From assembly GCA_964640635.1 (NCBI GenBank), contig CAZXFD010000002.1, forward strand, positions 179,115 through 243,114: DNA of 64,000 nt, given 5' to 3'. Positions within the stretch are counted from its first letter, which is position 1. The number at the start of each line of letters is the position of its first letter. Positions 18,136 to 60,730 of this stretch are shown in pieces. Source of the DNA: an uncultured Gammaproteobacteria bacterium (lineage in GTDB: Bacteria > Patescibacteriota > Patescibacteriia > UBA1558 > S5-K13). The translations under genes were made by a program, and so were the position numbers. The notes beneath the pieces are model-generated. The model had not been told where the DNA came from, searched no databases, and saw nothing but the letters and a program-made list of their open reading frames with translations.

Positions 18136-18167
18136 AAAAACATGGAATTAAAAAACCATGTTTTTTT
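18136..18167. terminator. Hairpin terminator between efp and the convergent transposase-like gene
   Basis: Stem aaaaacatgg/ccatgttttt with an 11-nt loop, flanked by an A-run and a T7 run. Confidence 0.6.
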
Positions 18168-18718: not shown

Positions 18719-20044
18719 CTATTTCAACTTCAATTTCCCAGCTATCTCTACGACATCTCTAAATAAAAATTGTCCTAGATTTATATCACCATAAACAATT
18801 GGGAAATATTTCTCTTGTCCTGACTTCTTAAATATATTTGCTATATACATTCCATACAAACCCGTTTCTCTTGGAGTAAGTGCAAACCTTGTAAACAAAA
18901 ATTGCAAATATAGACTCACCGTTTCAATACTGTCCAAATTGTTTGAAATGCTTGTAACAATATCTTCATCAAATTTCAAGAGTAGTGATTTTTTAAATTC
19001 AATAAACAAATTTTTATTATTCTTTATAAAAATATTTATAAGCTTATTTTTAGCAATAAAAACAACTGCTGAAATAAGTTTTTGTTTGTCTTTTGATCTT
19101 ATCATCTCATCAAATTCACCATAAAACTCATCCAAATTATTTTTGTATTTTTCAAACAATAACAAATCATTTTTTGTATTTGAAATACTCTTCTCAAAAG
19201 ATTTGTATTCTACAAGCAGTGCTTCTGCTGGATTTTGTTTCTTGACTACTGGTTCTGGAATTTTGACAGGAGTAGGTTGAACAAATACTTTGTTAACTGC
19301 AGAGACTGATCTATTTATATCAATATTATTAGAAATGTCATCGGTATTATCATTAATTATTTCTGTTTCTATGTCTTTTTTTATACCAAGCTTTGTAAAT
19401 TCTCCTTTGTTAAAATAATAAAGTTCCCCTGATTCATCTTCTATAATAAAATCATTTTCCATGCCCATTGGATCAAAAGAAGAAATACTTAATTTTCTAT
19501 AAAAATTTAATAAAATTTCAATTTTATTTTTTTCTTTATCGGGTAGAGCAAAAAAGTTTTTATCAGAATTAATAAATTTTGTAATGTTTAATGCATCTAT
19601 AAAACCACCTTCGGTAAATTGACCTCTAAAATATTTAAGCCAATTACTTATTGTAGGATCCTCTTGTATATTTCCTATATTTAAACTAGGTGTAGTAATT
19701 TTTAAATTCGATTCCCTAAGAGCGGTTTTTATTTTTGCTTTTAACTCATCTCTATCATCCAAATTTTCATAATTAGTAAGTAAATCATTCATTCTTGCTA
19801 ATATATCATAATTATCTATTTCAAAAACAACGTTAAAATGATTACTAATAAGGTCTAACACGTCATCTTCTTGCAATCTAGAAATTGCCAAATATCCTGT
19901 AACATGCTTCATATTGTATAAAGCTGGATCTTGTTGAGAAATATTTGTCTTTAAAAAATTCTTGATATCCAAAAATAACCTGTAAGCACTTACAATACTA
20001 TTATCATTTAATACATCATTAAATTGTTCTGAAAAATCTTGCAT
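18719..20044 (-). CDS. Hypothetical cytoplasmic protein (441 aa), last gene of the giant-protein operon
   Basis: ORF 12 nt downstream of the 975-aa gene on the same strand. No TM or known motif. Confidence 0.3.
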   Translation of the reverse strand: MQDFSEQFNDVLNDNSIVSAYRLFLDIKNFLKTNISQQDPALYNMKHVTGYLAISRLQEDDVLDLISNHFNVVFEIDNYDILARMNDLLTNYENLDDRDELKAKIKTALRESNLKITTPSLNIGNIQEDPTISNWLKYFRGQFTEGGFIDALNITKFINSDKNFFALPDKEKNKIEILLNFYRKLSISSFDPMGMENDFIIEDESGELYYFNKGEFTKLGIKKDIETEIINDNTDDISNNIDINRSVSAVNKVFVQPTPVKIPEPVVKKQNPAEALLVEYKSFEKSISNTKNDLLLFEKYKNNLDEFYGEFDEMIRSKDKQKLISAVVFIAKNKLINIFIKNNKNLFIEFKKSLLLKFDEDIVTSISNNLDSIETVSLYLQFLFTRFALTPRETGLYGMYIANIFKKSGQEKYFPIVYGDINLGQFLFRDVVEIAGKLKLK

Positions 20045-20055
20045 AATATTTAAAT

Positions 20056-22983
20056 CTAGGATTTACTACGTTTATTAATTACATCTAATAATTTTGGTGC
20101 CTGCTTGCTCAATTCCTTTGTAAAAATGTCACTCATTAAAACTTTTAAAATCTTCGGATTAAATGGGGTCTTTCCATCGTTTATAAGATCTATCAAATTT
20201 CTTTGATGCTTAACTAATTGTTGAATCATGTCGGGACTTACATTATTACCAACGGTATAAGAAGAAACGTGCATTTTTCTAAACAATTCTAATGTTTCTT
20301 TTCCACTATATATTATATCTATTACTTTTTTCTGAGTCTCATCTTTCCAGTGGACTGTCATATCGCTTTTACTACGAATATCTGCGCCGGGCTCGAATCC
20401 TACATTAGACCGCATCTTTCCGTCAATTCCAGTAACAGCCATTTTATCATATTTTAGATTATACTGTCCAGCCTCTTTAGAAATATTATTGGCCATCAAA
20501 GCTAATTGTTCTTCTATTCTTTTATTTGATCCTTTAAGTAGTTGTCTATCTACTACCATTTCTCTTCTTAAAAACTCCATCAATCCTTTACTAGACTTTT
20601 CATATCCAAATTTCTCTAAAATTGCTTCTAAATTATAATCCTTTGCTGCTTTCTGCATAACAACATTAACTTCTGCTATATTCCCACTTGCAAGAGCTTG
20701 ACTTATAGCCGGCACTTGATCTTTATCAAGACTTCCTAAGTTAGCATATTTAGCTTCTGCCTTTCTATTTTCTGCATCACTAACAATTTTACTAGACTCC
20801 TCTTTATTAAGTAGGTTATTCTGTAAAACTTCTTGTTGTTGTAAATCCGTTTCCTTTGTAAAAACTTCTTTCTGTTCTGATAAATATATTTTATTATCAT
20901 GCAAATCTGAAGATGTAACTGTAGTTTTCTTATCTAGATCATTTAGTTCCACCTCTCTTTTAGCAAAAGTATTTATAGCGTCTTGACTCTTCTTTTTTCT
21001 TTCTGATCCACTTATCGTTCTATCACTTTTAATACCCTCTAAAATAGAATTTAAATCATCTGCCATAGATCTTTTTTCTGCAGCAATAATATCTTTAATA
21101 AAAGTCTGTGTGCCACCCCTAGTGCTCATATCCTTAGACAACTCTATCTTCTCTTTAATTTGTTTACTCTCATTTATAAATTTTTGTAAGTCAGCCTCTT
21201 TTAGCTCTATTTGTTTTTCAATACTTTGCTTATCAGCGGCAGTTTTAGCTTTCCCCTTCTTTTTAGTCAATGCTTGAATTTCGAATTGAGCATCTCTAAT
21301 CTCTAAATCCTTATTTACTTGATCTGTTACTAATGCTGTTTCTTCTACTTTTGTTCCCACGACTCCCAAATCCAAGGCTCTTTTAACTCTGTCATTTAAT
21401 TCAATCCTCTTATCAATTTTACCAGAAGTTTCGGTCATCTTATCAATGCTTGTAACACGAGAATCTATAACACTCTTTCTTTTATTACCAAAAACAGCAG
21501 CTGCATACATTTTGCCCCATCCACCAAAAGTTCTTTCATTTTTTTCTCTTTCTGCCTTTGATGCGCCTGTTTTTCCATACCAAACTTTTCCAAAGTTAGA
21601 ATCATTAAACCCATCAACGGCATGTTTTTGTACCGCATCTTTTCTTTCTTTAACTCTATCTTTTCTATCCACATCTATCCTTTCTTTTCTAAGTTGATTT
21701 GCATATGTTCCTGGAATATATTGACCTACCCCAGTTTTACTTACAGCAGAATTCAAAGGATCTACAATGCCTCTTTTCAAAGATCCACCCACTCTTCTAG
21801 TAACACCTCTTTGCATACTCTTTACACCTCTCTTTACATATCCGCTCATCTTCTTCGTCATATTCCCCGCAATATTTCCTCCAGCAACACCAGACTCCTG
21901 AGCAATTTTCATTGACGTTATAAGAAGAGCAATAACTACAACATAATCAAACATATCGTCAATAGTAACAATAGAACTAGCCCCTATTACTTCTGACCCC
22001 TTTGTATTAGCGCCCTTAGTCATGCCCGCTACAATACTCCCACTTTGTGGATTTTCTGGACTTTGTGATCTTTGTATTGTAAGAAGTGACAAATAAAGAA
22101 AAAATGCGAGGACTGGTCCTGTCGTAAGCTGTTTTCCAAACTCAGTCCACCATCTGGAAGAGTATTTACTTCCAAAAGGAGTGCCTTGAAGAAAAAACGC
22201 CATTGGAGACAAAACAACAAGAACCCAAATATACACAATTCTCCAAACCAGTATCACAACAAACATCAAAAGTATTGAAGAAAGAATGACAAGCATAGCA
22301 AGTCCCAGGCCTGCCGTTGTAACTGCCGCTAAGGCTGCATTAAATTCATTATCTCCCTCAAGCTTACTCACAGCAGCATAGTCAAAGTTAAAAACTTTAT
22401 CCAAATGAAGTCCATAAATAATATTTCCTGATGCAATATCTTTGAATCCATTTACGAATGTAAGCATTACAACTTGAGAAAAATCTATCATAAGACCCAC
22501 TATTGTTTTTGAAAAATTTATTATAACAGCGGTCATTATTAATTTGCCGAGCCATTTCTTGTAAGAATATGCTTCATAATTTATTATTGTAGAAAATGCA
22601 ATGACAAGAAGGACTAATATAAAAAACATATTACAAATATCTCTAGTTATCTTCCATCCTTCATCTACGGCAGTGACTCCTTTTGAAAACTTGGTCCATT
22701 GAGCAAATGAAACAAACAATTGTAATTCAAGTTTAATAATTTCCCCTACTAAAGCTGCTAAAACACCTATAAGAGCCACTACTATATTTGCTACACCAGC
22801 ATAAAATACATTTGCATTTACAAAAAGCGGTGACACAAGCAAAATGGCAACCACAAAAACAGAAGACCCTACAAAAATCTTTCTTTTCTTTGATAACAAA
22901 TTCCATGATAACAAAAACTTTTGAAATATTTTTTTCAATCTATAATTCCACAGCGCTAAAGTTTTCTTAAATAATTTTTTCAT
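20056..22983 (-). CDS. Large polytopic membrane protein with a long charged coiled-coil tail; architecture resembles VirB6/TrbL-like T4SS channel proteins
   Basis: About 7-8 predicted TM helices in the first roughly 330 aa with Trp-containing loops, then about 650 aa of K/E/D-rich hydrophilic sequence. The assignment is by architecture only. Confidence 0.3.
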   Translation of the reverse strand: MKKLFKKTLALWNYRLKKIFQKFLLSWNLLSKKRKIFVGSSVFVVAILLVSPLFVNANVFYAGVANIVVALIGVLAALVGEIIKLELQLFVSFAQWTKFSKGVTAVDEGWKITRDICNMFFILVLLVIAFSTIINYEAYSYKKWLGKLIMTAVIINFSKTIVGLMIDFSQVVMLTFVNGFKDIASGNIIYGLHLDKVFNFDYAAVSKLEGDNEFNAALAAVTTAGLGLAMLVILSSILLMFVVILVWRIVYIWVLVVLSPMAFFLQGTPFGSKYSSRWWTEFGKQLTTGPVLAFFLYLSLLTIQRSQSPENPQSGSIVAGMTKGANTKGSEVIGASSIVTIDDMFDYVVVIALLITSMKIAQESGVAGGNIAGNMTKKMSGYVKRGVKSMQRGVTRRVGGSLKRGIVDPLNSAVSKTGVGQYIPGTYANQLRKERIDVDRKDRVKERKDAVQKHAVDGFNDSNFGKVWYGKTGASKAEREKNERTFGGWGKMYAAAVFGNKRKSVIDSRVTSIDKMTETSGKIDKRIELNDRVKRALDLGVVGTKVEETALVTDQVNKDLEIRDAQFEIQALTKKKGKAKTAADKQSIEKQIELKEADLQKFINESKQIKEKIELSKDMSTRGGTQTFIKDIIAAEKRSMADDLNSILEGIKSDRTISGSERKKKSQDAINTFAKREVELNDLDKKTTVTSSDLHDNKIYLSEQKEVFTKETDLQQQEVLQNNLLNKEESSKIVSDAENRKAEAKYANLGSLDKDQVPAISQALASGNIAEVNVVMQKAAKDYNLEAILEKFGYEKSSKGLMEFLRREMVVDRQLLKGSNKRIEEQLALMANNISKEAGQYNLKYDKMAVTGIDGKMRSNVGFEPGADIRSKSDMTVHWKDETQKKVIDIIYSGKETLELFRKMHVSSYTVGNNVSPDMIQQLVKHQRNLIDLINDGKTPFNPKILKVLMSDIFTKELSKQAPKLLDVINKRSKS

Positions 22984-23058
22984 TTACTTTTGTATAAATT
23001 ACAATACTCAATTCCCAATAACCAATATACAGAAATTAGAGTATTGATTATTCTTTTG

Positions 23059-32000: not shown

Positions 32001-32208
32001 TAAAAGCAACCGAGCCACCCTTGTTCCATAAATAAGTAGTAGCGCCAGATACTCTTTCCCAAACCCATTTACCAGCCTGCAAAACTGATTGAACAGGATC
32101 TGTAAATTGAGCATGTGCCTTTCGTGGAACAAAAAATGAAATATTAGCAGAAAAGAAAAAAACAAAAATCATTATTACTAAAGTTTGTTTTTTATTTTTT
32201 ATATTCAT
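23059..32208 (-). CDS. Giant (3049 aa) cysteine-rich protein with an N-terminal signal peptide and CBM4/9-like beta-sandwich modules
   Basis: N-terminal signal peptide (MNIKNKKQTLVIMIFVFFFSANISFFVPRKAHA). Very high Cys/Asn/Ser/Gly/Tyr content and a recurrent C-x4-6-G-C-x-x-[FY] motif (at least 9 copies, e.g. CDEKSAGCVAL, CSKDDLGCEAY, CNEKNVGCSAM). At least two segments start like CBM4/9 modules (NPSFEIDENEDMIPDGW, FEDFEPSGVFLGEVF). Confidence 0.6.
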   Translation of the reverse strand: MNIKNKKQTLVIMIFVFFFSANISFFVPRKAHAQFTDPVQSVLQAGKWVWERVSGATTYLWNKGGSVAFMRAFQSFSNQLAYKAATQIATGDAGGKPQWFTKLIVDEARLAGEAAGAEFLDNLASGYGINICQPPTMDLPINLALSLKLNLKDTDVASMKPRCSLDELKKKWGDFATQLTNPLSIISLNDSSLMDVLKTTGYDLSKFGIPTSSIVNSKLTPDQRRQLQAELLKDTISFQKSDTNFVQDAVQAAKDAVKKADADTVANITAGDSPKGKRSLITKSLIVPAELTKQELINIQKRNEDAAKLRTEDILVDSANIFLNTLVSKGLNTLIQNLMKEKAPQADLADGSGSFVGSKTGIIDEIFSTINRISMNINPRDINLIAEMEMDMGDEFMGKMNNKTIDSKFADVLRRAETEPLTTKEAIDENLLDGNKFIGYIDIGTSIRQPMLDEGYSYDNIKKLRKNRVVPVGWEFAALKVAKLNPDNYPAGCDSRGCKLVSVMEGYDKTGTFKRGNETIKDNYCGYRSVSLAPYNINITSAANCNAAGMLGVDASTIDVKWVGTGNAQGYCMKYNIDSEGVVVSKEIETAVALNNETTCNNSYEETFYHEWIYGGCVVKEKDESPFCRLVDPNWVLKAPKQQCASEGYYSALESAESPNRYKDCADVKNCLKEDDNGNCLGYGYCLKEKNIWKFRGRKCDEKSAGCVALKDDAGKEKSYILDTLKSCPPDEAGCKEYSKYKTKNAEGNYVWATTDFNYFNKNVLSCDKGNEGCSKFIEIIPGLNLVPNPSFEIDENEDMIPDGWDAPNFMTTTTEAFDGRYSILHTKGDSILKLDISNSDFNILNKGLYTLSYRVKKLRSSDVVSVTPSLILNGESITNTDANYSSGESQWEMKSGYFGVNGNSSGASIKFAVSGDVYIDAVQFELNNYDASNVSSGVGVPSMYNNYGEKGILHMKKAPSYYNCNSANPDVSCANYSKYCSKDDLGCEAYKPENGDQIVSGIVSQEDICPSECNNYQTFSQYPSYFEILESNSGIVGLENKDFISGSAKDCSPSQESCELFTNVDKANKGGEAREYYSYLRQCVKPSAVSSTIYYTWEGSDTSGFQLKTWRFLKSNKSEAPCTNVEIGATSTCSDIGLADVEGEGQCDPNTNLDCRTFYDKDAQPHNRLLSKTIPVTDSCIDLRREASDGSSVVYRAVPSMSTKCSATSVGCRRYKGNNGNNIRSVLFEDFEPSGVFLGEVFGGSKAPSNESTVYNGHSMVVYSSSGNTVSIEYNLTQNGETLIPGKRYTLDFWAKSSNDNNPNNNNHDTAQQKTKPAIEFLNLNPIKLFKAHALNVNNLDFGLMQLENNQEWLQYKYNWRDLETSASGDYILKFSITLPDDYKTFFIDNISLKEITSDFYKIKDSWVTPATCRGYLGCQKYSDRDNNPWYFHQFTNTCNEKNVGCSAMIDTQNSEMPFQQTYNAYCSNSSGGECSNGRTYYKNYSNINSGNFSSSTIVVSKDRLVYIIKERNNLCASSNKGCSAFGFKGDDGKYQDVYKINNPDNYIQDDYFGSSNKILCLSEFRDCSAFSVSGGGTIYKIHPRDKVCEYKEADASNGRAAGYYNVNDANISCEGSIYNENYNLLLSDISYIDSGIAPFGGYNNDYSVSCNSNQNKCSMFIDPTDSKDLSIEATNATHQQINFTNSGSWSSANWQNGQFENVSNLLASSVNNVLSFNISDKNTIIYKASKSNPFGFSVSENAVYRLSANVEFDGLTTDGKEYISTFLSCGPRGQDGAISYVEDSVVGGENNNPKGGVISGSIPYAFPFTKANYFIQESDNKSHQISGLYKILPGANYCNVAFYVKGKSGAVVKLKDIRFEKMEGNYYYIDNEELDKTSCSKASVKDGCVLFNNLSKSNLSSNALRSYENGSLVGINSNDPSYNNDSNELLKVVRDRECGEWDTCSSKIKTVDTEGQDKYSCVSLIGCNNLSSSGDCANYIPKNQNDKALNLEKYYSDLGSGSWSNMIYSGYSMPGAYAPHSLSTYKTTSSSMSTYNLGHIIKRGQYLYKDGISYTNPLSSIADTAGIINISSLKSCRLYPEKDSPFSWTPNNSMVLNYELNGAGSKYAIITGKDSAFANANISQPSYGALKPGESNVLNQGQSSDCSYRSVNYGMETLFYPYEGIDIPNTIETSNDGITTSTMKIKKIAKNMGWFGFCLDYDKSRFINTGYKTSYNDPSNLNYRCLSWYPVDAISGEVDSTSYAPQADIVSKLTEGATMCIVGNNYKTTEDRIYCLQTDASNQCIKLVLVPNDSMISANNIGSNTYWLTNYKTRSELNFDVQGQASIIVKDNALGGMFSGDQFGLTANANLSDSFDDIFVGSVSMPMLIYAYDIEFSNSTNIYLESCNGDWPDTPVCPTDTHQISYREWEGDHCGWTNMGHTRRMKSLSCNPRTYGYYINDSGVNPMPSRTGKCGKDCKYDPIESGDFSFGRGCLRNSSSTSVYATLVNQFGGQNTNPSGPRSFNVGLCKSQTPNEFDTSCDIVAHFEIINQLDNISHSCSIYRDPYSSTGIASYIYPSLESEIVRCFGNDINNYQDPRSPLLYNNVADCRSAEIPYSACRNIDGTRKCENRKNGCCPDGCQKNRMLPNSNNPNPLFDQDCLRFGNSDCNTCSIFNQSGTQSMLTSCANDKCLKSCKTSAILDGSVKFKANNFYLNTISIEKFTTATLPAIAIDGWREFCKDPLASDIFCPSMLSGSSSSYGISGFARNNKMILQVGPTNSASWVANSLHPSFGAAVGTSQDPIFVSGGFSSVFPGYYGNDIAQAKTNLGQLIVGIPNSNLKTFNGVEWLQDNSINWNVVGGENPVIRSVKSVSDGGGEGNEGFSINRNPAKDYVVVGKNNTNIDISFYAYAVPNQTPIREIKICWDSNSENGDCFTVAGPFKNRKPDCIRRCGVTYKQAFPSTSANTWGAECGENVLCPSGMQCFAKTWGDHEDACKEDIGDEKSYLTFSHLYSCSPMSDTWLDNCGNGRGCCKYTPYLQITDSWGKSKGTYMCGADTCSIKIYPQ

Positions 32209-32237
32209 AAATAGCCTGTCCCGCTATAACGGGATAA

Positions 32238-32969
32238 TTATTGATTTTTTGATGCTTCTTCATTTAATGTCTGAATGTAAACACTTTGTATTTCTTCATC
32301 TGAAAACTTCGACAAGTCACTTTCGGTTGCACCTTGACTTATCAAAAGTTGTTTAATTTCTTGAATTGACAAGTTCTTTAATTTCTCTAATTCAGAAGAT
32401 GCAGTATTTGTATTTTCGATTTCACTACCAGATGGAGTAATTTGATCTATAATTTCTTGTGAATACCCAGCCTCAAGTAATTGTTTTTTTATATCATCAT
32501 AATTTATAGCTTCACCAAAAATACTTGAGCTAGCAGAAATTACAGATAAATTTGCAGACGCATTACAAGATAAAATATCTGTACAATTATTTCCCTTACC
32601 TAAAATTACTTCATCATAATCAGATATATCATTACTATTTGTATCCGCCAAATAAGGACTTGTTCCATAAATATTCATTTCATCGGTATCAGATAATCCA
32701 TCACCATCGGTATCCTTGAGACTGTTTAAGCCTTCTATAATATAGGACTTATCACTAAGAGATATTTGAGAGGAGACAAATGAATTTTTTATTCCATATA
32801 TCATTTTCCAAGAACCTAGTAAAATAGACATAATTCCTATAACAAAAATAATTTTTACCCCCACTGAGTCTCTAGAAAAATATTTAAAAATTTTAACCAA
32901 AAAACCATCTTTTATTTCAAGAATACTTTGATCATTTTCAGCATATCTTTGTTCTCTATCAAGACCCAT
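32238..32969 (-). CDS. Membrane-anchored protein with a thrombospondin type-3-like Ca-binding repeat; first gene of the giant-protein operon
   Basis: One TM helix (IIFVIGIMSILLGSW), DTDGDGLSDTDEMNIYGTSPYLADTNSNDISDYDE repeat, and an acidic C-terminus. It lies 30 nt upstream of the giant gene. Confidence 0.45.
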   Translation of the reverse strand: MGLDREQRYAENDQSILEIKDGFLVKIFKYFSRDSVGVKIIFVIGIMSILLGSWKMIYGIKNSFVSSQISLSDKSYIIEGLNSLKDTDGDGLSDTDEMNIYGTSPYLADTNSNDISDYDEVILGKGNNCTDILSCNASANLSVISASSSIFGEAINYDDIKKQLLEAGYSQEIIDQITPSGSEIENTNTASSELEKLKNLSIQEIKQLLISQGATESDLSKFSDEEIQSVYIQTLNEEASKNQ

Positions 32970-33890: not shown

Positions 33891-34011
33891 AACAAATCAA
33901 TGATCAATACACGATAATCAAATCACAGATAATAATCAATGTGCAATTTTTAATTTTCGATTATTGATTATTAGAATCTATCTGATTATTGGAACTTGTT
34001 TATTATTTATT

Positions 34012-37664: not shown

Positions 37665-37703
37665 GTTTTAGATTATTGATTATTGATTATTTTATCATTT
37701 TTC

Positions 37704-37779
37704 TAATCCTCTCCCGCAAAGTGGGATCCCGCAACAATTATAAAATATATGGGGGCGGGGCTAACCTCCTAGCCTAACC
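37704..37779 (+). repeat. GC-rich structured intergenic repeat (family member 1)
   Basis: tcctctcccgcaaagtgggatcccgcaacaattataaaatatatgggggcggggctaacctcc is nearly identical to 46001..46078. Confidence 0.75.
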
Positions 37780-43917: not shown

Positions 43918-44700
43918 TTATTCCTTTGCAATATTCCACAAAACTTTAAAATAATTTTCAAAAGATTTTACAATCTCAACATTTTTTATTTCAAAAATAA
44001 TTGAATGAGTTGAATAAATAATAAGCTCAATTCTATCATTCCAAATTTGGATACCCACAGGAGAGTAAAACGACTCTGGTAAAAATTTAAACTTCTTTCT
44101 CTGCAATTGCGATTGATCTCTGTAATCTTTATCCATAAAATTGCTAATTTCATTTCTCTGATTTTCATAAGCTAAGAGTCGCTGATCTACATTTTTTTCT
44201 ATTCTAATTTTTTCATATTTATACAAAATTCCAGATTCTTTTGCTAAATCAATCCACTTTTGACTTCCAGCACCAATTATATAATTAACCGAATCTTTTT
44301 CTTGATTTTTTATATTTGTCATGTGAACTGTTTTAAATCCATCGAGCCCTTCATATACTCTTATATCAGAAATATTTTTGGAAGTATCTCTTTTTGAAAT
44401 AAGTTGGGGAAGCAATTTTTCTATTGTTTCTTCTTGAAGTCTGACATTTTCAAGTAATTGCTGAGGGTCTTTTGTCTGAAAATTCTTGCGTCCTGACTTT
44501 ACCACGGAGAAGACAAGCTCTTTTTCCTCGAGCTCTGCAAGAGTATTATAAACAGTCTGTCTTGGAAGCTTTGCTTTTGCAATTATCAGTCCTGCGCGAC
44601 TCTGTCCAAGCTCTAAAAGTGCCAAATATACCCTTGCTTGATTGCTAGAAAACCCTAATTTTATTAATTCTTGTTCCATATGTTCATTTGCCCGTCGCAT
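43918..44700 (-). CDS. TrmB-family transcriptional regulator
   Basis: N-terminal wHTH LGFSSNQARVYLALLELGQSRAGLIIAKAKLPRQTVYNTLAELEEKELV; 260 aa. A paralogue is at 59972..60730. Confidence 0.65.
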   Translation of the reverse strand: MRRANEHMEQELIKLGFSSNQARVYLALLELGQSRAGLIIAKAKLPRQTVYNTLAELEEKELVFSVVKSGRKNFQTKDPQQLLENVRLQEETIEKLLPQLISKRDTSKNISDIRVYEGLDGFKTVHMTNIKNQEKDSVNYIIGAGSQKWIDLAKESGILYKYEKIRIEKNVDQRLLAYENQRNEISNFMDKDYRDQSQLQRKKFKFLPESFYSPVGIQIWNDRIELIIYSTHSIIFEIKNVEIVKSFENYFKVLWNIAKE

Positions 44701-47155: not shown

Positions 47156-48529
47156 ATGAATTTTAAAAAAATTGCTATTTTGCTTATTCTTACATTATTT
47201 ATAAGCTCTGGGGCTTCTTGTAGCAAAACTACTACTACCGACAAAAATCTTTTTAAACCCATTACTATAACTATTTGGGCTGTTTATGAAAATGAGGATA
47301 GCTTTGCACAGGTATTTCAAGAATTTAAAAAACAACATCCAACTGTAAATTTTAGTTTCCGCGTTTTTGAAGCAGAAGAATATGAAAATCAATTACTAAA
47401 TGCTTGGGCAGACAATCGTGGTCCAGATATTTATTTTCTTCCCAACTCCTCTATTGGAAAATACTATGCAAAAGGAAGAATTACCCCTCTACCAGAAAAA
47501 ATCAAGCTTCCATATAGACAAGCGACAACAAGGGGTGTGGGAATGTTTTCAAAAACAGAAATTAAAGACTTTGTAAAAGAACAAAAAACTATTACTCCCG
47601 CTCAAATAAAAGACGCTTACGCAACAGTTGCTTACAATGATATTGTTATAAACAACAAAATATATGGACTTCCTCTCAGCATAGAAACATTAGCAATGTT
47701 TTATAATAGAGATATTACAAATGGAGCAAATATTGCAACCCCCCCTGTCAATTGGAACGACTTTGTGGAAAATGTAAAACAAATAACGCTCCTTGATGAA
47801 AAAAAGGTCTTTATCCAAAATGGAACAGCAATGGGTTCTACAAAAAACATAGACAATGGCTCTGATATAGCACTGCTTCTTATAAATCAAAATGGCATAA
47901 ACACCCTAGAAAATAATTCTTTCAATCTTGGAAAAACTCAAGAAGAAGTGCAAAAAACGCTAGAAGCTATCAAGTTCTTTAACGATTTTTCTAATCCTAT
48001 AATGGAAGTACACTCATGGGACGACACCTCAAAACAAGATGCCTTTAGTGCATTTACGTCCAAAAAACTTGCATACTATTTTGGCTATCCACACAAAATA
48101 AAAGAAATACCAAAAACTCTAAACTACGGAATAGCTCCCGTTCCTCAGATAAACAAAACTGCTCCCGCAAATATTGCAGACTATTGGGTAATGACAGTTT
48201 CTCATCAAACCAAAAATATAGATATTGCTTGGGGCTTCATTGACTTTATAAACAAAGCAGAAAATGCTAAAATATATCTAAGTAAAAGTGGAAAACCAAG
48301 CTCACTTAGATCTCTTATAGATTATCAAAAAGAAAAACAACCTGAACTTACTCCATTCCTAGATCAAATACTTACAGCAAGATCTTGGTACAAAGGAACC
48401 AATCCAGAATTCGCACAAAAACAACTAAGTAGCTTTATAGAACAACTCAAAATAGCAAAAGATCAAAAACAACAAATAGAATTTCTCAATACAGCATTAA
48501 TACAAATCAATCAAGATAAAGTAAATTAA
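47156..48529 (+). CDS. Extracellular solute-binding protein family 1 (sugar-type ABC SBP), probable lipoprotein or anchored protein
   Basis: Signal peptide ending LFISSGASCSK, 457 aa with an SBP-like composition. No permease or ATPase genes adjacent. Confidence 0.5.
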   Translation: MNFKKIAILLILTLFISSGASCSKTTTTDKNLFKPITITIWAVYENEDSFAQVFQEFKKQHPTVNFSFRVFEAEEYENQLLNAWADNRGPDIYFLPNSSIGKYYAKGRITPLPEKIKLPYRQATTRGVGMFSKTEIKDFVKEQKTITPAQIKDAYATVAYNDIVINNKIYGLPLSIETLAMFYNRDITNGANIATPPVNWNDFVENVKQITLLDEKKVFIQNGTAMGSTKNIDNGSDIALLLINQNGINTLENNSFNLGKTQEEVQKTLEAIKFFNDFSNPIMEVHSWDDTSKQDAFSAFTSKKLAYYFGYPHKIKEIPKTLNYGIAPVPQINKTAPANIADYWVMTVSHQTKNIDIAWGFIDFINKAENAKIYLSKSGKPSSLRSLIDYQKEKQPELTPFLDQILTARSWYKGTNPEFAQKQLSSFIEQLKIAKDQKQQIEFLNTALIQINQDKVN

Positions 48530-48576
48530 CCCAAGTTAGCTACGAAGCTTTCGTAGCTACGAAGCTAACAACTCAA

Positions 48577-49785
48577 ATGAAAAATAAAAAAAATAAATCC
48601 TTATTTAATTTACCCAAAATACTTCCTCTCATTATTTTCTTTCTTCTAATACTAAATGTGCCTACAAACAAAACCTTTGCCTGTGCATTTACTGAGGATT
48701 GTGATCCATGTCAAAAATGTTCATGGACTCTTTGTGTAAATAATGACGAAGACACAAGGTGCTCTACAATGTGTGAAAGAGGGGTGTGTGCAAAACAATG
48801 CGAAGGCACTTGTAAATCAGTTTGTGAAGTAGAAAATGGAGAAACACCCGGAGATCCTATCAATGATGGAGAATGTTTTGAAAATAGACAACTATCTCCT
48901 TCACTACATTGTTGTATGCCTAGTGGTACAACTCAAGTAGAAAACTGTAGTGGAACTTGTAAAAATATTTGTAACTACACCACGGAAACTCAGGACTCCA
49001 CTGGCACTTGCCTTGGTAGCAAAAAATGTTGTATCGCCAAAGTCAATGATGATACTGATACTGATATAGTAGACATAGGAGGGTTAATAGAGGATACGGA
49101 AATAAATACCGGACTAACAGCTCAATCAAATGCTACGCAAGGCGTCCTCTTTACAGGTGTAAGTTGTATTGAGAGTGGAAATTGTAGCGTAACAGATATG
49201 ATGAATACCGCTATAAACGTAACAACATTTTTACTAGGAATCATAGGAAGTGTAGCGTTATTATTCTTCATACTTGCTGGTTTCAAGTTGCTTACATCTC
49301 GTGGAAATGAACAAGCTATAAGTAGTGGCAAACAAATGATGGTTCAAACTGTTATAGGAATATTTATATTTTTCTCTGCATTTCTAATAATCGACTTTAC
49401 TAGAAAATCGTTATTAGAGCCTCGATATGCCACTCCACTTGGAAATCCATATGAAGCACCTGGGACACAAGAAGTAGCAGTGCCAGAAGCGACAGAAGAA
49501 ACAACAGAAGCAACAACAATCAACGCAGAAGCCGATTGTAATGATACAACCACTGGAAAAATACATTGGAGATGTGTAGGGAGGTTTGGGGCTGGATCTA
49601 GATGCAGACAATTGACGTCTGGCGCAAGTGATCTCGTAAGTGACGGAAAATGTACTAGGGCTGGATTATGTCCAGTACAAGGATCCGCTAGCTTAGTTGT
49701 ATATTGCTGCAAATCAGACGTAACATCAGGAACCGTATATAATGGTCCAAAAACATGTCCATGTACTGGAAATTGCGAATATTAA
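48577..49785 (+). CDS. Secreted Cys-rich protein with an embedded TrbC/VirB2-like two-helix pilin core (decorated pilin-like)
   Basis: Signal peptide, then about 200 aa containing 26 Cys (CAFTEDCDPCQKCSWTLC...). The core TFLLGIIGSVALLFFILAGFKLLTSRGNEQAISSGKQMMVQTVIGIFIFFSAFLII is homologous to the downstream pilin genes. A Pro/Thr/Glu linker and an about 110-aa C-terminal Cys-rich domain follow. Confidence 0.5.
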   Translation: MKNKKNKSLFNLPKILPLIIFFLLILNVPTNKTFACAFTEDCDPCQKCSWTLCVNNDEDTRCSTMCERGVCAKQCEGTCKSVCEVENGETPGDPINDGECFENRQLSPSLHCCMPSGTTQVENCSGTCKNICNYTTETQDSTGTCLGSKKCCIAKVNDDTDTDIVDIGGLIEDTEINTGLTAQSNATQGVLFTGVSCIESGNCSVTDMMNTAINVTTFLLGIIGSVALLFFILAGFKLLTSRGNEQAISSGKQMMVQTVIGIFIFFSAFLIIDFTRKSLLEPRYATPLGNPYEAPGTQEVAVPEATEETTEATTINAEADCNDTTTGKIHWRCVGRFGAGSRCRQLTSGASDLVSDGKCTRAGLCPVQGSASLVVYCCKSDVTSGTVYNGPKTCPCTGNCEY

Positions 49786-49834
49786 TAAAGCTCACTAAAA
49801 AAATAATACTAATTTAAAATAAACATTAATCTAT

Positions 49835-50173
49835 ATGAAACACTCCAAAATAAAAAAAATATCTACTGCAAGCATCTTTGTAATCACGACAATACTCACC
49901 ACCCAAATAACTAGTGCTCAACTAACAAATCCTATGAGGGCAAATAGTATACCAGAATTAGTAGGTCTTATCATAACGGCTATCTTAGGGATAGTAGGAT
50001 CTATTGCACTACTTATGTTTATCTATGGTGGATTTACATGGCTTACATCAGGTGGTGCTGAAAAGAAAATAAAAGAAGGAAGAGAAACACTTATCTGGTC
50101 TATTATGGGACTTGCTGTAATATTTGCAAGTTATGCCATACTCCGATTTGTTTTTGGAATATTAGCTTTATAA
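49835..50173 (+). CDS. TrbC/VirB2-like pilin family protein, paralogue 1
   Basis: Signal peptide (…ITSAQ), TM1, loop GGFTWLTSGGAEKKIKEG, TM2; 112 aa. Confidence 0.55.
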   Translation: MKHSKIKKISTASIFVITTILTTQITSAQLTNPMRANSIPELVGLIITAILGIVGSIALLMFIYGGFTWLTSGGAEKKIKEGRETLIWSIMGLAVIFASYAILRFVFGILAL

Positions 50174-50275
50174 TAACCTTTTATATTTACTATAAAAATA
50201 GTATAATTTATATATAATTTTAAATAAGAAAAAAATAATAATCTCCCTTTACTGGGAAAAGAAAGGAATCAACAA

Positions 50276-50683
50276 ATGACAAATTTAACAAAAAAGGTAG
50301 TAAGTTTTTCTCTAGTACTTCTTATCTCCTGTTTCATGGTGTTTGGAGTAAGTGCTCAAATAAATGAGGGTCTAGACTATGCAGAAGACATTGCTACTAA
50401 CGGAGATCTTGGAACAGCAAATAGTGAAACTGCAATATCTACAATAATAAATACAGTTTTAGGATTTTTGGGAATTATTGCTCTTGTAGTAATATTGCTC
50501 GGTGGGTTCAAATGGATGACATCAGGTGGAAATGATGAAAAAATCAAAAAAGCAAAAGGAACTCTTATGGCAGGAGTCACAGGACTTATTATTGTTCTTG
50601 CAGCTTATGTAATAGTTGGCTTTGTAGTTGATACAGCTCAAAACGCAACAACCGAAGGAACAGGAACATCAATAACCGAATAA
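50276..50683 (+). CDS. TrbC/VirB2-like pilin family protein, paralogue 2
   Basis: Signal peptide (…GVSAQ), variable segment, TM1, GGFKWMTSGGNDEKIKKAKG, TM2, Thr/Gly-rich tail; 135 aa. Confidence 0.55.
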   Translation: MTNLTKKVVSFSLVLLISCFMVFGVSAQINEGLDYAEDIATNGDLGTANSETAISTIINTVLGFLGIIALVVILLGGFKWMTSGGNDEKIKKAKGTLMAGVTGLIIVLAAYVIVGFVVDTAQNATTEGTGTSITE

Positions 50684-50826
50684 TTTAGATACTCTTATCC
50701 TCTCTTTGAGGGGATAAGTAATTTGAATTATACCCTGCGGGGAATAAACAATACACAATCACCAATAATCAGACAAATTCCAGCTTCCACTTCTTGAATT
50801 CTTGATTATTGATTATTGAGCATTAT

Positions 50827-50871
50827 CTGTCTCTCAACCCTGTCTTCGACTCCGAGATCGCTCAGACTCGA
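50827..50871 (+). repeat. Degenerate third copy of the 56-bp repeat (lacks the central palindrome)
   Basis: ccctgtcttcgactccgagatcgctcagactcga aligns to tcttcgactctgaga...gctcagactcga of copy A. It is flanked by ttgattattgattatt motifs at 50797 and 50905. Confidence 0.5.
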
Positions 50872-50960
50872 GGAAAGGTCTCTGGACCGAAGGGTAATTT
50901 AAGATTTGATTATTGATTATTCACGAAGTAACTTATTTAATTGATATTAAAATCAATCTA

Positions 50961-51434
50961 ATGAAAAACAAAAACAACAAAAACGTGCTCAGTAGATTTT
51001 TTATTTCATTGTTATTTTTACTAATAACAATTTTTAATTTCCAAATCGCAAACGCACAGGGAAATGTTACAGAAGTTAGAACTCCTGAAAAATATGGGCT
51101 AACAGAGGCTGCGACGCATGGGGGGTTAATCACAAACGATTCTGATAATCAAGATATTATATTGATAGTTTCAAATATAGTTGGCTATGCTCTTTATTTC
51201 ACTGGATCTATATTTTTTATATTAATTATTATTGCTGGATTTACTTGGATGACTGCAGGAGGCGAAGAAAAAAAAGTATCTAGCGCCAAGGGCAAGATAA
51301 AGGGTGCTATCATGGGCATAGTTGTAATTCTTTGCGCTTATATAATTACAACATTTGTATTTAATACATTAAAAGCAACCATAGAAACAGATGAACTTGC
51401 TCCTCCACCAGCGGACAACACAATAGCGCCATAA
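50961..51434 (+). CDS. TrbC/VirB2-like pilin family protein, paralogue 3
   Basis: Likely start is ATG 50961 (MKNKNNKNVLSRFF…ANAQ); the ORF-track start is a TTG. Core AGFTWMTAGGEEKKVSSAKG, TM2, Pro-rich tail. Confidence 0.5.
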   Translation: MKNKNNKNVLSRFFISLLFLLITIFNFQIANAQGNVTEVRTPEKYGLTEAATHGGLITNDSDNQDIILIVSNIVGYALYFTGSIFFILIIIAGFTWMTAGGEEKKVSSAKGKIKGAIMGIVVILCAYIITTFVFNTLKATIETDELAPPPADNTIAP

Positions 51435-51446
51435 AAAGAATCAAAT

Positions 51447-51833
51447 ATGACTAAACTACAAAAAATAAAATACTCCCTCCTAACTATTTTGAGTTTTTTT
51501 GTATCTCCTATTGTTCGCGGACAAAGTGCGATAGAAAATGCCTCTATCGATGCCCAAAATATGGCTGGCCTAATTGGGTATAAAAATACCAGCTCTCAGA
51601 ACATACTATTTTTAATAGGCACTATCATAAAATATACACTTAGCTTTATCGGTGTAATATTTTTAGCTCTTGTAATAATAAATGGCTTCAAATGGATGAC
51701 TGCAGGAGGAAATGAAGAAACTGTCAAAAAAGCAAGGTCTGCAATACTCGATCTAGTAAAGGGTCTTCTAGTAATTGCCCTAGCATACATTATTACAAGT
51801 CTTATTCCATTTATTATGCTCGCAATAGACTAA
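51447..51833 (+). CDS. TrbC/VirB2-like pilin family protein, paralogue 4
   Basis: Signal peptide (…VRGQS), core NGFKWMTAGGNEETVKKARS, two TM helices; 128 aa. Confidence 0.55.
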   Translation: MTKLQKIKYSLLTILSFFVSPIVRGQSAIENASIDAQNMAGLIGYKNTSSQNILFLIGTIIKYTLSFIGVIFLALVIINGFKWMTAGGNEETVKKARSAILDLVKGLLVIALAYIITSLIPFIMLAID

Positions 51834-51859
51834 TAAAACATAATTTATAAAATAAAAAA

Positions 51860-52258
51860 ATGATTCACAAAAAAATAAAATACTCCCTAGTATTAATTAT
51901 TTTTGCATGTTTAATTGTTGTCAATTCTGCAATTGCAACAACCACGCTCAATCTTAGTGATACAGGAACTGGAATAACCAATCTTGCAAATACAGCTGGA
52001 TACGAAACATATGGCGTAGATCCATACAGAACCATAGGAAATCTAATCAAGGTGGCATTATCCTTTTTGGGAATAATATTTTTAATTCTTGTTATACTCA
52101 GCGGTTTCCAATGGATGTCGGCGGGTGGGAATGAAGAAGCTATCAAAAAAGCAAAGGGAAGAATAAAAAATGCTACAATGGGACTTGTAATTATTTTAAT
52201 GGCATATGCACTTACTTATTTCATATTAGATATTTTATTAAGTCAAACAATTAAATAA
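51860..52258 (+). CDS. TrbC/VirB2-like pilin family protein, paralogue 5
   Basis: Signal peptide, core SGFQWMSAGGNEEAIKKAKGRIKNAT, two TM helices; 132 aa. Confidence 0.55.
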   Translation: MIHKKIKYSLVLIIFACLIVVNSAIATTTLNLSDTGTGITNLANTAGYETYGVDPYRTIGNLIKVALSFLGIIFLILVILSGFQWMSAGGNEEAIKKAKGRIKNATMGLVIILMAYALTYFILDILLSQTIK

Positions 52259-52262
52259 CACC

Positions 52263-52670
52263 ATGAAAATCAAAAAAACACTTATATCAATATCAATACT
52301 TACAATATACTTATTTTTTACCGTAATAACTATTGCCTTTGCAGAAGGAACATCCACAAAACAAAATATACTTGGCAACACAAAAAATGTTAGTGAAAAT
52401 GCTGGATATCTTAGTGCTAATGCAGACACTCTAACGGCAACAATAGCAAATACTGTAAAAATACTACTTTCTTTTTTGGGAATAATATTTTTACTTCTTG
52501 TCATAATTAGCGGTTTTCAGTGGATGACCGCAGGGGGAAATGAAGATGCTGTTAAAAAAGCGAGGACCAAAATAAAAAATGCTACGATAGGTCTTATAAT
52601 AATCGTCCTATCTTATTCTCTAACAGCCTTCATAGAGTTTGAAATAATAAAAAAAGCTCAAGGATTATAA
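52263..52670 (+). CDS. TrbC/VirB2-like pilin family protein, paralogue 6
   Basis: Signal peptide (…AFAEG), core SGFQWMTAGGNEDAVKKARTKIKNAT; 135 aa. Confidence 0.55.
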   Translation: MKIKKTLISISILTIYLFFTVITIAFAEGTSTKQNILGNTKNVSENAGYLSANADTLTATIANTVKILLSFLGIIFLLLVIISGFQWMTAGGNEDAVKKARTKIKNATIGLIIIVLSYSLTAFIEFEIIKKAQGL

Positions 52671-52684
52671 ACTAAAAAAATAAA

Positions 52685-53092
52685 ATGCTAAAAAACTTAA
52701 AAATATTTATATTAACGCTCTTGCTATCTTTCTGTTTTTACAACGGTACTTTCGCGGTAACTAATATAAACTCCGAAGAAAGAACTGATGCTTTTGCCGG
52801 ACAAGCCGGCTTACTTGCTCCATCTCACACTACTATTATTGAAAATATTGTAAAAGTATCGCTAAGTTTACTTGCCGTCGTATTTCTTATATTAATAATT
52901 TACTCCGGTTTTGAATGGATGACTGCGGGAGGAAGTGAAGAAAAGGTTAAAAAAGCAAAGGGAAGAATAAAAAATGCTACAATTGGAGTCATAATAGTAT
53001 TATTCTCATACATAATAACGAGTTTTATATTCAGCACCATTGAGTGTAGCACCACGGGTTGTAATGAGGGGGTTTGGAACTTTAATTTCTAA
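52685..53092 (+). CDS. TrbC/VirB2-like pilin family protein, paralogue 7 (C-terminal CSTTGC tail)
   Basis: Signal peptide (…GTFAV), core SGFEWMTAGGSEEKVKKAKGRIKNAT; 135 aa. Confidence 0.55.
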   Translation: MLKNLKIFILTLLLSFCFYNGTFAVTNINSEERTDAFAGQAGLLAPSHTTIIENIVKVSLSLLAVVFLILIIYSGFEWMTAGGSEEKVKKAKGRIKNATIGVIIVLFSYIITSFIFSTIECSTTGCNEGVWNFNF

Positions 53093-53117
53093 ACATACAA
53101 ATTAAATTTATAACAAA

Positions 53118-53145
53118 AATCGGATCATAGATCCGATTTTTGTTA
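53118..53145. terminator. Bidirectional hairpin terminator between the pilin array and the convergent isomerase gene
   Basis: aaaaatcggatcatagatccgattttt: stem atcggatc/gatccgat flanked by an A-run and a T-run. Confidence 0.6.
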
Positions 53146-53163
53146 TAAACAATGTTATACTAA

Positions 53164-57278: not shown

Positions 57279-57830
57279 TTATTTTCTATAATTCCTATCA
57301 TTTTCCCAGTTACTGGGATTATTTTGTATATATTTTCTACATTTCCATAAATCAAGGTCTGTACGCATTATGCGATCATAAAATCCTTGTTGCCAACGGA
57401 AACTATAATGTTTAAATTGTATATTTATTATTTTTTTACAGATTGATTTGTAAGATCTAATTATCGATGATAATGACCCTGATTTTGGAGAAATGTTAGA
57501 CATTTGCGCATTTCCGTAGAGACGTAGCATTGCTACGTCTCTACGTTGTTTAAATCTAATAGACATTATCAAATGTACGTGATTTGGCATTATAATAAAC
57601 GAATCTATTTTAATAAAACGGAAATGCGCATCTATTTGTTTTAAATACTGTTTTACAATATACCCCAACTCATTTAATATCATCTTTTCCTCTTTAATTT
57701 CACCGAACATATTTACCCTATCCTTTGTACAGATTGTGACAAAATAAAAACCGGGATTAGAATAATCCCAGCACTCTAGCCTTGTCGATTTAACCCTATA
57801 TTTATTTTTAAATAAGGCCTTATTTTTCAT
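57279..57830 (-). CDS. IS200/IS605-family Y1 HUH transposase homologue (RAYT-like), second and distinct paralogue
   Basis: FYFVTICT, HUH motif MPNHVHLIM, C-terminal SFRWQQGFYDRIMR...YIQNNP. It contains an in-frame 31-nt perfect palindrome at 57514..57544. Confidence 0.7.
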   Translation of the reverse strand: MKNKALFKNKYRVKSTRLECWDYSNPGFYFVTICTKDRVNMFGEIKEEKMILNELGYIVKQYLKQIDAHFRFIKIDSFIIMPNHVHLIMSIRFKQRRDVAMLRLYGNAQMSNISPKSGSLSSIIRSYKSICKKIINIQFKHYSFRWQQGFYDRIMRTDLDLWKCRKYIQNNPSNWENDRNYRK

Positions 57831-59971: not shown

Positions 59972-60730
59972 ATGCTAAGCGATCTAAAAGATCTTGGCTT
60001 TACGCCAAACGAAATAAAAGTTTATGAATCATTACTAAAACTCGGAGAAACTCCTGTTGGGGGCATTATTAATGACCTGAAAATTCATAGACAAATTGCC
60101 TACAATGCGCTTGATACTCTAGAAAAACGAGGCATGATATCAAAAACAATGAAAAACAAAGTTTATCATTTCAAAGTTGAAGATCCAGAGATAATTGTAG
60201 AAAATATCCAAAAACAAGAACTTATCGCAAAAAGACTATCAGGACTGATAAAGCTTGAAATGGGTAAGACAAAAATAGACAATTCAATTGATATTTACAA
60301 TGGCAGAGAAGGAGTTAGAAAATTTCAAATTCATATGATGAATGAAATATCTACCAATGGAACAATATATATAATTCAAGGTGGTGCTACAGCATACCAA
60401 CAAACAATGGGATTAGACTTTATAATAAAAAAAATAGACCCTATAAGAATAAGAAAAGGTATTATTGTAAAAAACGTAATGTCTGAAAAAGACCGGTTAG
60501 AAAATAAAAAATACATGGGAAGTATAAATGCAAAAAGCAAAAACCTCAGGCAAGTTAAATTCCTTCCCTATCAAAATATTATCAATCCAACATTTACAGA
60601 TATCTGGGAAAATCATGTATCATTCATATCTTCTGGGAAAGAACCATTTGCAATAGATATCAAAAATCAAGAATTTTATAATTCATATTTAGAGCACTTT
60701 AATGTGCTTTGGAAAATGGCAAAGAAATAG
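59972..60730 (+). CDS. TrmB-family transcriptional regulator (paralogue of 43918..44700)
   Basis: LGFTPNEIKVYESLLKLGETPVGGIINDLKIHRQIAYNALDTLEKRGMISK wHTH; the C-terminal end resembles the other copy (FNVLWKMAKK vs FKVLWNIAKE). Confidence 0.6.
   Translation: MLSDLKDLGFTPNEIKVYESLLKLGETPVGGIINDLKIHRQIAYNALDTLEKRGMISKTMKNKVYHFKVEDPEIIVENIQKQELIAKRLSGLIKLEMGKTKIDNSIDIYNGREGVRKFQIHMMNEISTNGTIYIIQGGATAYQQTMGLDFIIKKIDPIRIRKGIIVKNVMSEKDRLENKKYMGSINAKSKNLRQVKFLPYQNIINPTFTDIWENHVSFISSGKEPFAIDIKNQEFYNSYLEHFNVLWKMAKK

Follow-up and report, generated by a model that had tools for sequence, protein, structure and literature searches.

Much of the bacterial diversity that has not been cultivated belongs to the Patescibacteria, which live on other cells. 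Few of the machineries behind this lifestyle have been shown to be essential to it, and a type IV secretion system (T4SS) with its pilin array is among them. In the saccharibacterium Southlakia epibionticum, six divergent pilins are encoded by an array that sits in the T4SS gene cluster SEML1_0006-0019 and is essential for epibiotic growth (PMC10633639, Wang et al. 2023; reviewed in PMC12857230). Tandem VirB2-like arrays in Patescibacteria at large are already published: 441 arrays of 2-11 genes were identified in 383 assemblies, with an identity among paralogs that averaged 25% and did not exceed 54%, an array being defined as at least two PF18895 or PF04956-type genes of low identity that are in tandem or one gene apart (PMC12102498, Quinonero-Coronel et al. 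2025). Here we describe eight successive plus-strand open reading frames (ORFs), far above chance expectation, at positions 48577-53092 of a 64-kb stretch of DNA (the window; positions 179,115 to 243,114 of contig CAZXFD010000002.1, assembly GCA_964640635.1). They are in tandem, have pairwise identities of 22-47% and fall within the published definition of an array (Table 1). We consider it likely that they form a chromosomal array of VirB2-like (PF18895) pilin genes of the same kind as the essential array of Southlakia, whose products would be assembled by a T4SS encoded elsewhere in the genome; that a pilus is formed, and what it does, is inferred.

Like the published patescibacterial arrays, the array described here consists of tandem PF18895/PF04956-type genes of low identity whose products have a signal peptide and two helices, in monoderm epibionts with reduced genomes. 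It differs from them in lying outside a T4SS gene cluster, as judged from VirB4 in the window and around related arrays, and in being headed by an orphan solute-binding protein (SBP) gene and a Cys-rich extended pilin, features that were not found in PMC12102498 or PMC10633639. In the open-access literature that was searched, we found neither a Cys-rich lead pilin nor positional orthology of the copies, a hairpin after the W3-type gene or a consistent match to a family of mycoplasma integrative and conjugative elements (ICEs). Related loci were collected from a species-level genome collection with an alignment of six core sequences, and 79 of them were analyzed. The closest were those of Candidatus Komeilibacteria, followed by Falkow-, Uhr-, Kuenen- and Magasanikbacteria, and the Komeilibacteria entries in Table S1 of PMC12102498 are placed in the GTDB class ABY1. 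The array belongs to a Komeilibacteria-like (class ABY1) patescibacterium and adds an ABY1 example to the arrays described before.

The sequence-only reading of this DNA had recognized eight consecutive plus-strand paralogs of a single architecture, and the analyses bear this out. The product of each gene starts with a leader that is basic and hydrophobic and contains a small-x-small site; a variable segment, a first transmembrane helix (TM1), a conserved basic loop, a second helix (TM2) and a variable tail follow in this order. Signal peptides (cleavage sites of the A-x-A type) and topology were assigned by eye and not with a predictor. When all six frames of the window were scanned with a hidden Markov model (HMM) of the family, exactly these eight genes and no pilin fragments were returned. 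The loop is rich in K/R and in its fullest form reads G-F-x-W-M-T-[AS]-G-G-x-E-E-x-[IV]-K-K-A-[KR], and the 64 nt coding for it constitute an eight-copy DNA repeat family with 61-78% identity. The loop motif quoted in the sequence-only reading is strict in genes 3, 5, 6 and 8, is altered by one conservative change in gene 7 and is departed from in genes 1, 2 and 4. The variable segment, given there as 20-50 aa, measures 23-34 aa in the mature products of six genes, 11 aa in that of gene 2 and ~173 aa in that of gene 1. In pilin 1 this Cys-rich N-ectodomain is followed by the two-helix core and by a Cys-rich C-terminal domain of ~120 aa; both ectodomains recur in the homologs P0246 and P0265, the terminal CPCTGNC-x-Y included. 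For pilin 4, the ATG at 50961 was preferred over the TTG at 50913 because it agrees with the N-terminus of the ortholog (MKNKNNKNVLS).

All eight products score above the gathering threshold of PF18895 (T4SS_pilin; 26.6 bits), in a range from 28.3 to 47.5 bits, and none reaches the cut-off of any other Pfam family. Among 118 close relatives, every one matches PF18895, every one matches NF045849 (E<=1e-3, best E 2.9e-13) and 28 match PF04956 TrbC/VirB2 (E<=1e-3). A superfamily link of the array to PF04956 is plausible from these profile matches, and by the same kind of comparison the window pilins are related to the NF045849 family, yet are not members of it. The eight genes also have the architecture of VirB2-type pilins, i.e., a putative cleavable Sec signal peptide, two hydrophobic helices and a short positively charged loop, and the AlphaFold2 (AF2) model of pilin 6 is a helical hairpin (residues 55-87 and 92-130) with a predicted local distance difference test (pLDDT) score of >90. 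A PilA-type prepilin leader was seen in none of the eight, no pilin N-methylation or type II secretion system-type Pfam family was matched, and there are two transmembrane helices rather than one. With PF18895 matched by all copies, gene 1 near the PF04956 cut-off and PF04956 matches among the relatives, the assignment to the VirB2/TrbC type, and not to type IV (PilA) pilins, that had been made from sequence alone is retained.

A syntenic eight-gene array with the same flanking SBP and pgi genes is present in a relative (GCA_019248045.1/GCA_019248485.1), and two related loci, L001 and L002, have identical pilin sets. When the genes of the window are compared with those of the relative, they pair 1:1 by position, with identities of 53-82% on the diagonal and 22-48% off it; gene 3 is the most conserved ortholog (82% overall, 90% in the core and 93% in the signal peptide). 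Judging from these identities, the eight-fold duplication is older than the split of the window genome and its relative. Because the available orthologs are only 53-82% identical in protein, synonymous sites are saturated. Among the paralogs (genes 2-8), the N-segments are 15.6% identical, as in shuffled sequence (16.5 +/- 6.8), compared to 43.7% for the core and 9.2% for the tails, in agreement with the earlier observation that the helices and loop are conserved while N-segments and tails diverge between copies. Between orthologs, the corresponding values are 43, 75.5 and 38%. In these comparisons the rate of evolution of the predicted exposed parts is about double that of the core, yet falls short of hypervariability: the description of the N-termini as hypervariable holds between paralogs and fails between orthologs. 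With 35 nt as the longest exact DNA word common to two copies, recent gene conversion is not indicated, and the hallmarks of a gene-conversion system of the pilE/pilS or msp2 type were not found at the array, where all eight genes are complete and silent cassettes or long identical tracts are absent.

Across the 79 loci, runs of six genes are commonest (39 loci) and the longest run has 11. The subfamilies recur in one order, with a W1-like, a W2-like and a W3-like gene followed by a W4-8-like group. An alternative layout has one SBP-adjacent W1/W2-like gene and, a few kb downstream, a six-gene array that opens with a W3-like gene. In most loci with the SBP gene immediately before the complete array, a W2-like gene occupies position 2. 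The W3-like gene comes third if the array starts immediately after the SBP gene; in Falkowbacteria-type loci, the six-gene arrays open with it. In arrays headed directly by the SBP gene, the lead pilin is 180-402 aa long with 6-32 Cys, its extra domain being N- or C-terminal of the hairpin, and lead pilins carry a conserved C-x2-[DST]-G-x-C-[ST] motif just before TM1. Single polypeptides with 3-8 successive pilin modules (spacer, TM1, loop, TM2) and no internal signal peptides, such as P0245 (820 aa) and P0247 (552 aa), make up ~30 of the best 150 homolog matches. Some modules within one fused protein are near-identical and point to recent internal duplication. These natural single-chain fusions hint at co-assembly of pilin modules.

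Alternative use of the copies has to be weighed against such co-assembly. The eight genes could encode interchangeable major pilins, one or a few of which would be expressed at a time for evading host defenses or switching host range, as has been proposed for the VirB2 paralogs of Bartonella and Anaplasma. The same idea was raised for Patescibacteria (PMC12102498) and would account for predicted exposed N-segments and tails that cannot be aligned between paralogs with a conserved core, and the hairpins and promoter-like sites of the region could permit differential expression. We regard it as improbable for this array. Positional 1:1 orthology at the identities given above leaves no room for turnover or homogenization of the copies and disfavors a fast antigenic-variation cassette. 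The order of subfamilies is kept over many loci, every copy is full-length with its own signal peptide, no silent fragments accompany the genes and the longest exact stretch in common is short. Genes 4-8 are tightly packed, with intergenic gaps of 4-26 nt and no hairpins between them. Alternative subunits for antigenic or host-range variation, which the sequence-only reading had offered as speculation, are on these grounds not favored. The stability of the paralogs, the multi-module fusions and the reported essentiality of the Southlakia array together argue for co-assembly of distinct subunits over alternative use, and ancient, position-fixed and probably non-redundant paralogs point to a heteromeric structure rather than to antigenic switching.

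The nucleotide-level features are consistent with a division of labor among the genes. Three stem-loops divide the SBP-pilin module, before gene 1, after gene 3 and after gene 8. The one after gene 3 is kept in L001 and L068, where the substitutions leave the stem possible, and is possibly an attenuator or an mRNA-stabilizing hairpin. Over the loci compared, a hairpin with a mean minimum free energy (MFE) of -13.4 kcal/mol (53% <= -12) comes after internal W3-class genes, as is also seen after array-terminal genes, and internal W5-W8-class genes have no hairpin after them (mean MFE -2.3 to -4.5 kcal/mol; 0-3% <= -12). Because gene 3 combines the highest conservation with a conserved hairpin after it and a promoter-like site before it (a weak consensus match), it likely encodes the major subunit, and genes 4-8 likely encode accessory ones. 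It should be noted that the promoter-like site is a consensus match only and that such sites are no commoner in the region than in shuffled sequence. Rfam searches gave three tRNAs only for the whole window, and for the spacer between genes 3 and 4 one sub-threshold miRNA match, which was dismissed. In the same spacer, two copies of the motif TTGATTATTGATTATT flank a GC-richer insert of ~88 nt that is absent from the spacers of L001 and L068. The remaining copies are just upstream of ksgA and leuS, and in all there are five matches (<=1 mismatch) in four intergenic regions where 0.06 were expected; the motif may serve regulation or be the remnant of a small insertion. The stem-loop before gene 1 fills the 47-nt gap that separates it from the SBP gene, unlike in most related loci, in which the SBP and pilin genes abut or overlap.

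The orphan SBP gene upstream of the array encodes a family-1 lipoprotein, and the closest solved structures to its product are the sugar/oligosaccharide SBPs of ATP-binding cassette (ABC) transporters. A lipobox is present in this product and in 54/54 SBP relatives. This SBP family is the most widely shared neighbor in the pilin-selected loci (54/79) and is always on the same strand; a pilin gene directly follows the SBP gene in 52 of these 54 loci, with gaps mostly from -38 to +59 nt, and the stop and start codons often overlap. Conversely, SBP similarity alone (33-46% identity) was used to pick 80 metagenome loci, and a pilin start within 250 nt downstream on the same strand was found in 66 of the 73 that had at least 450 nt downstream. 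No ABC permease-like ORF was found in 160 loci, in which the only ABC-type ATPase ORFs were those of SMC. The SBP probably has the fold of its family, but its gene is unlikely to belong to a classical ABC importer locus. Given that its adjacency to a pilin gene survives the rearrangement separating the two locus architectures, selection would seem to be behind it, beyond merely inherited synteny. The near-constant pairing is in line with a published speculation in which the pilus acts as a conduit for uptake, and makes the SBP a candidate ligand-capturing partner. The SBP-pilin gene pair was not found in the open-access full text that was searched, nor is it mentioned in PMC12102498.

Two further proposals arise from this pairing. 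The first is a dedicated surface organelle of ABY1 bacteria that would combine the SBP and the Cys-rich lead pilin with six to ten different VirB2-like hairpins, a fixed set of non-identical subunits in a defined order or stoichiometry, the SBP capturing host glycans or binding the host surface at a VirB2-type conduit, possibly without a neighboring VirB4. Although we hold this to be a doubtful extension of the likely pilin array, such an SBP-coupled pilus or channel would, if true, be unlike any described T4SS or ABC system. The second dispenses with the T4SS altogether: the hairpins would form a hetero-oligomeric membrane ring or channel that works with the SBP as a non-ABC uptake or adhesion apparatus in ABY1. 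The nearly invariant adjacency with often overlapping codons, 160 loci in which the SBP gene has no ABC permease or ATPase gene close by, the lack of VirB4-like ORFs within 10 kb of the arrays and the existence of single chains of 3-8 hairpin modules all fit such an apparatus. Its existence is nevertheless unlikely, because the HMM matches link the family to TrbC/VirB2 and to the mycoplasma-ICE pilin-like conjugation protein, a homologous array lies inside a T4SS cluster in Saccharibacteria, the Komeilibacteria and other ABY1 genomes among the entries of Table S1 of PMC12102498 mostly encode VirB4, and each copy in the window has its own cleavable signal peptide, as would be expected of pilin monomers. 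Moreover, a physical complex cannot follow from gene order alone.

A T4SS that could assemble the pilins would have to be encoded elsewhere. Pilin genes are away from virB4 in ~40% of patescibacterial assemblies, and VirB4 is present in 6/6 Komeilibacteria genomes among the entries of Table S1 (PMC12102498). Within the window, 25 kb from the array, a 975-aa protein with a polytopic N-domain and a long coiled-coil tail is a candidate extended VirB6-like membrane protein. It has 898 homologs, and those with a source name are all annotated as patescibacterial lineages. Some of these homologs carry a precomputed match to PF19590, which we take to be a TrbL-like family, and two have weak matches to PF04610 TrbL/VirB6 (E~1e-3, below the cut-off); the protein itself has no Pfam match. 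The AF2 model of its N-domain has a pLDDT of 81, and in a Foldseek search of the PDB the only matches with a probability of at least 0.87 were to R388 TrwI/VirB6 (0.87-0.97, E 0.04-0.24, TM-score 0.25-0.43). Alignment to TrwI/VirB6 with hhalign was negative (probability 0.6%), and a PDB profile search returned coiled-coil noise only. The protein is probably VirB6-like and possibly part of the cognate machinery of the array. Its gene is in a four-gene cluster (Table 1), the order of which is kept in two Komeilibacteria assemblies and a 952-kb JGI contig (L004, L005 and L006). The cluster is adjoined by the gene for KsgA, which is frequent near virB4 (PMC12102498), and one of two ORFs with an IS200-like Y1 transposase domain is directly downstream of it.

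The model that we propose is as follows. Sec would export the pilin precursors, signal peptidase I would cleave them, and each mature pilin would form a membrane hairpin with both termini outside and, in keeping with the positive-inside rule, the basic loop inside. F and T pilins are known to have this topology, with termini out and loop in. A T4SS of the monoderm type, encoded at another place in the genome (VirB4, VirB3/PrgI and VirB6, the last possibly being the candidate just described) would then extract the hairpins and polymerize them into a pilus-like conduit, in which the conserved helices and loop would provide packing and the lumen and the divergent termini the outer surface. The eight subunits would be non-redundant parts of one structure and not alternatives to one another: gene 1 would likely encode an adhesive or a tip-or-base subunit, and genes 4-8 would likely be co-transcribed with one another and supply the accessory subunits, with the product of gene 3 as the major one. 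The structure would serve contact with or uptake from the host cell, probably together with the SBP lipoprotein.

Several results weigh against this model. No VirB4 or VirD4 is encoded in the window, an absence that the sequence-only reading had pointed out for VirB4 and that family searches of the window proteins confirmed, and no VirB4-like ORF was found within 10 kb of any of the 79 related arrays; in this screen of ORFs of at least 400 aa with a Walker A motif, only SMC-/FtsY-like ORFs and one unassigned 661-aa ORF were returned. With PF04956, gene 1 scored 24.5 bits (E=3.2e-5; cut-off 27.9), gene 4 scored 13.4 bits and the other genes gave no match. With NF045849, gene 3 scored 39.5 bits and the others 17-36, all below the equivalog cut-off of 40 bits. 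The hhalign probability against VirB2 of Agrobacterium (pTiC58) and R388 TrwL was only 6%; the segment aligned to VirB2 at this probability is the equivalent one, TM1 and the G-x-x-W-M region. A PDB profile search with the family alignment gave only designer "Pizza" repeat proteins, spurious matches that arose from adding up weak repeats. The roles proposed for genes 1, 3 and 4-8 are drawn only from conservation and hairpins. A pilus of a PF18895-type family has never been seen, and nothing in this study shows assembly; for patescibacterial VirB2-like pilins, polymerization into a pilus was put forward as a possibility only (PMC12857230).

That the genes instead encode generic small two-helix membrane proteins (holins, bacteriocin-immunity or CvpA-like proteins) amplified in tandem is very hard to credit and the holin, immunity or phage reading was rejected: two-helix hairpins are structurally non-specific and gene 4 has a weak match to Colicin_V (E=0.014, below the cut-off), but all eight pass PF18895 and reach the cut-off of no other family, the PHROGs search that, with Pfam, checked for such a placement matched no holin or other phage family, and the neighbors are housekeeping and syntenic genes without phage or bacteriocin genes among them.

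Table 1. Positions, in the 64-kb window, of the pilin array and of the other features discussed.
Feature	Positions	Strand	Description
Orphan family-1 (sugar/oligosaccharide type) SBP lipoprotein gene	47156..48529	+	PF01547 SBP_bac_1 83.3 bits (cut-off 26), E=3.9e-23
Stem-loop, SBP gene to pilin 1	48535..48569	+	MFE -16.3 kcal/mol, z = -5.0
Pilin 1	48577..49785	+	402 aa, 32 Cys; PF18895 32.9 bits
Pilin 2	49835..50173	+	112 aa, shortest copy; PF18895 40.0 bits
Promoter-like site TTTATA-16-TATAAT	50180..50207	+	Upstream of pilin 3; 10/12 consensus positions
Pilin 3	50276..50683	+	135 aa; PF18895 44.1 bits
Stem-loop directly after pilin 3	50694..50718	+	MFE -17.1 kcal/mol, z = -3.3
Pilin 4	50961..51434	+	157 aa from ATG, 173 aa from TTG; PF18895 29.7 bits
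Pilin 5	51447..51833	+	128 aa; PF18895 28.3 bits
Pilin 6	51860..52258	+	132 aa; PF18895 38.3 bits
Pilin 7	52263..52670	+	135 aa; PF18895 35.5 bits
Pilin 8	52685..53092	+	135 aa; PF18895 47.5 bits
Palindromic terminator-like hairpin	53107..53149		Shared with convergent pgi; stem 20 bp, MFE -24.1 kcal/mol, z = -9.3
Four-gene cluster	18719-32969	-	The four genes of the next rows
TSP3-repeat protein	32238-32969	-	Secreted
Giant protein	23059-32208	-	3049 aa; faint CBM_4_9 match only
Candidate extended VirB6-like polytopic membrane protein	20056..22983	-	975 aa
441-aa protein	18719-20044	-	No family
TTGATTATTGATTATT sites	33957-33972, 37669-37691, 50802-50817, 50906-50921		<=1 mismatch
72-nt intergenic repeat	37700-37771, 45996-46067		Copies 90% identical
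IS200-like Y1 transposase domain ORF	18148-18645	-	165 aa, E=1.6e-5
IS200-like Y1 transposase domain ORF	57279-57830	-	183 aa, E=1.5e-6
TrmB-type (sugar-specific) regulator gene	43918-44700	-	Paralog of the following
TrmB-type (sugar-specific) regulator gene	59972-60730	+	Paralog of the preceding
TSP3-repeat protein	10386-11162	+	Secreted

The surroundings of the array are those of a chromosomal locus. The neighboring genes are housekeeping ones, including those for LeuRS, KsgA, EF-P, SSB, iPGM, PGI, RuvC and NrdD, and the GC content of ~31% is unremarkable. A location on a mobile element was rejected because the housekeeping flanks are syntenic with the relative and the GC content does not stand out. 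Two paralogous TrmB-type regulator genes flank the wider region, and L001 has a TrmB-like gene at the place that matches the second copy. Bacterial thrombospondin type 3 (TSP3) repeats, which are calcium-binding, occur in two secreted proteins of the window. One of these is a fusion with a YkuD L,D-transpeptidase domain. The copies of the 72-nt intergenic repeat contain G/C-rich self-complementary stretches (CCCGC...GGGGGCGGGG).

Beyond the patescibacterial arrays, the closest described systems are the canonical VirB2/TrbC/TraA pilins, i.e., Agrobacterium VirB2, R388 TrwL, RP4 TrbC and F TraA, which are likewise small, Sec-exported proteins with two hydrophobic helices and a short basic loop. 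The pilins described here differ from these in the weakness of the statistical link, in a monoderm host without an outer-membrane core, in the presence of eight paralogs rather than one major pilin and in the absence of an adjacent VirB3 or VirB4. In the operons of chaperone-usher pili (pap, fim) and type IV pili, the gene for the major subunit is followed by a hairpin and then by the genes for minor subunits. The logic of the array is alike, with a conserved subunit gene, a stable stem-loop and tightly packed further subunit genes, but neither the protein families nor the machines that assemble them are related, and the likeness is an analogy only. The VirB2 clusters of Anaplasma phagocytophilum and Bartonella also consist of tandem divergent virB2 copies with variable exposed parts (cited in PMC12102498). 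They are, however, found in diderm pathogens that have the full VirB system, and a role in antigenic variation is ascribed to them, whereas the positions of the copies described here are stable over long evolutionary distances.

The family that all close relatives match besides PF18895, NF045849, which is also the closest NCBIfam model to the window pilins, is that of the mycoplasma-ICE pilin-like protein Mbov_0395/MMCAP2_0565. Like the pilins described here, this protein comes from a wall-less or monoderm lineage with T4SSs of the MPF_FATA type. The ICE protein is encoded by a single-copy gene on a mobile element, in contrast to the chromosomal, syntenic and eightfold genes of the array, which score below the equivalog cut-off. 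MPF_FATA systems were stated to lack VirB2 homologs (PMC12102498). Given that all 118 relatives match NF045849, monoderm MPF_FATA-type elements may, contrary to that statement, have a VirB2-like component; the profile matches suggest that they do. The match to the mycoplasma-ICE pilin-like protein also bears on the origin of patescibacterial pilins.

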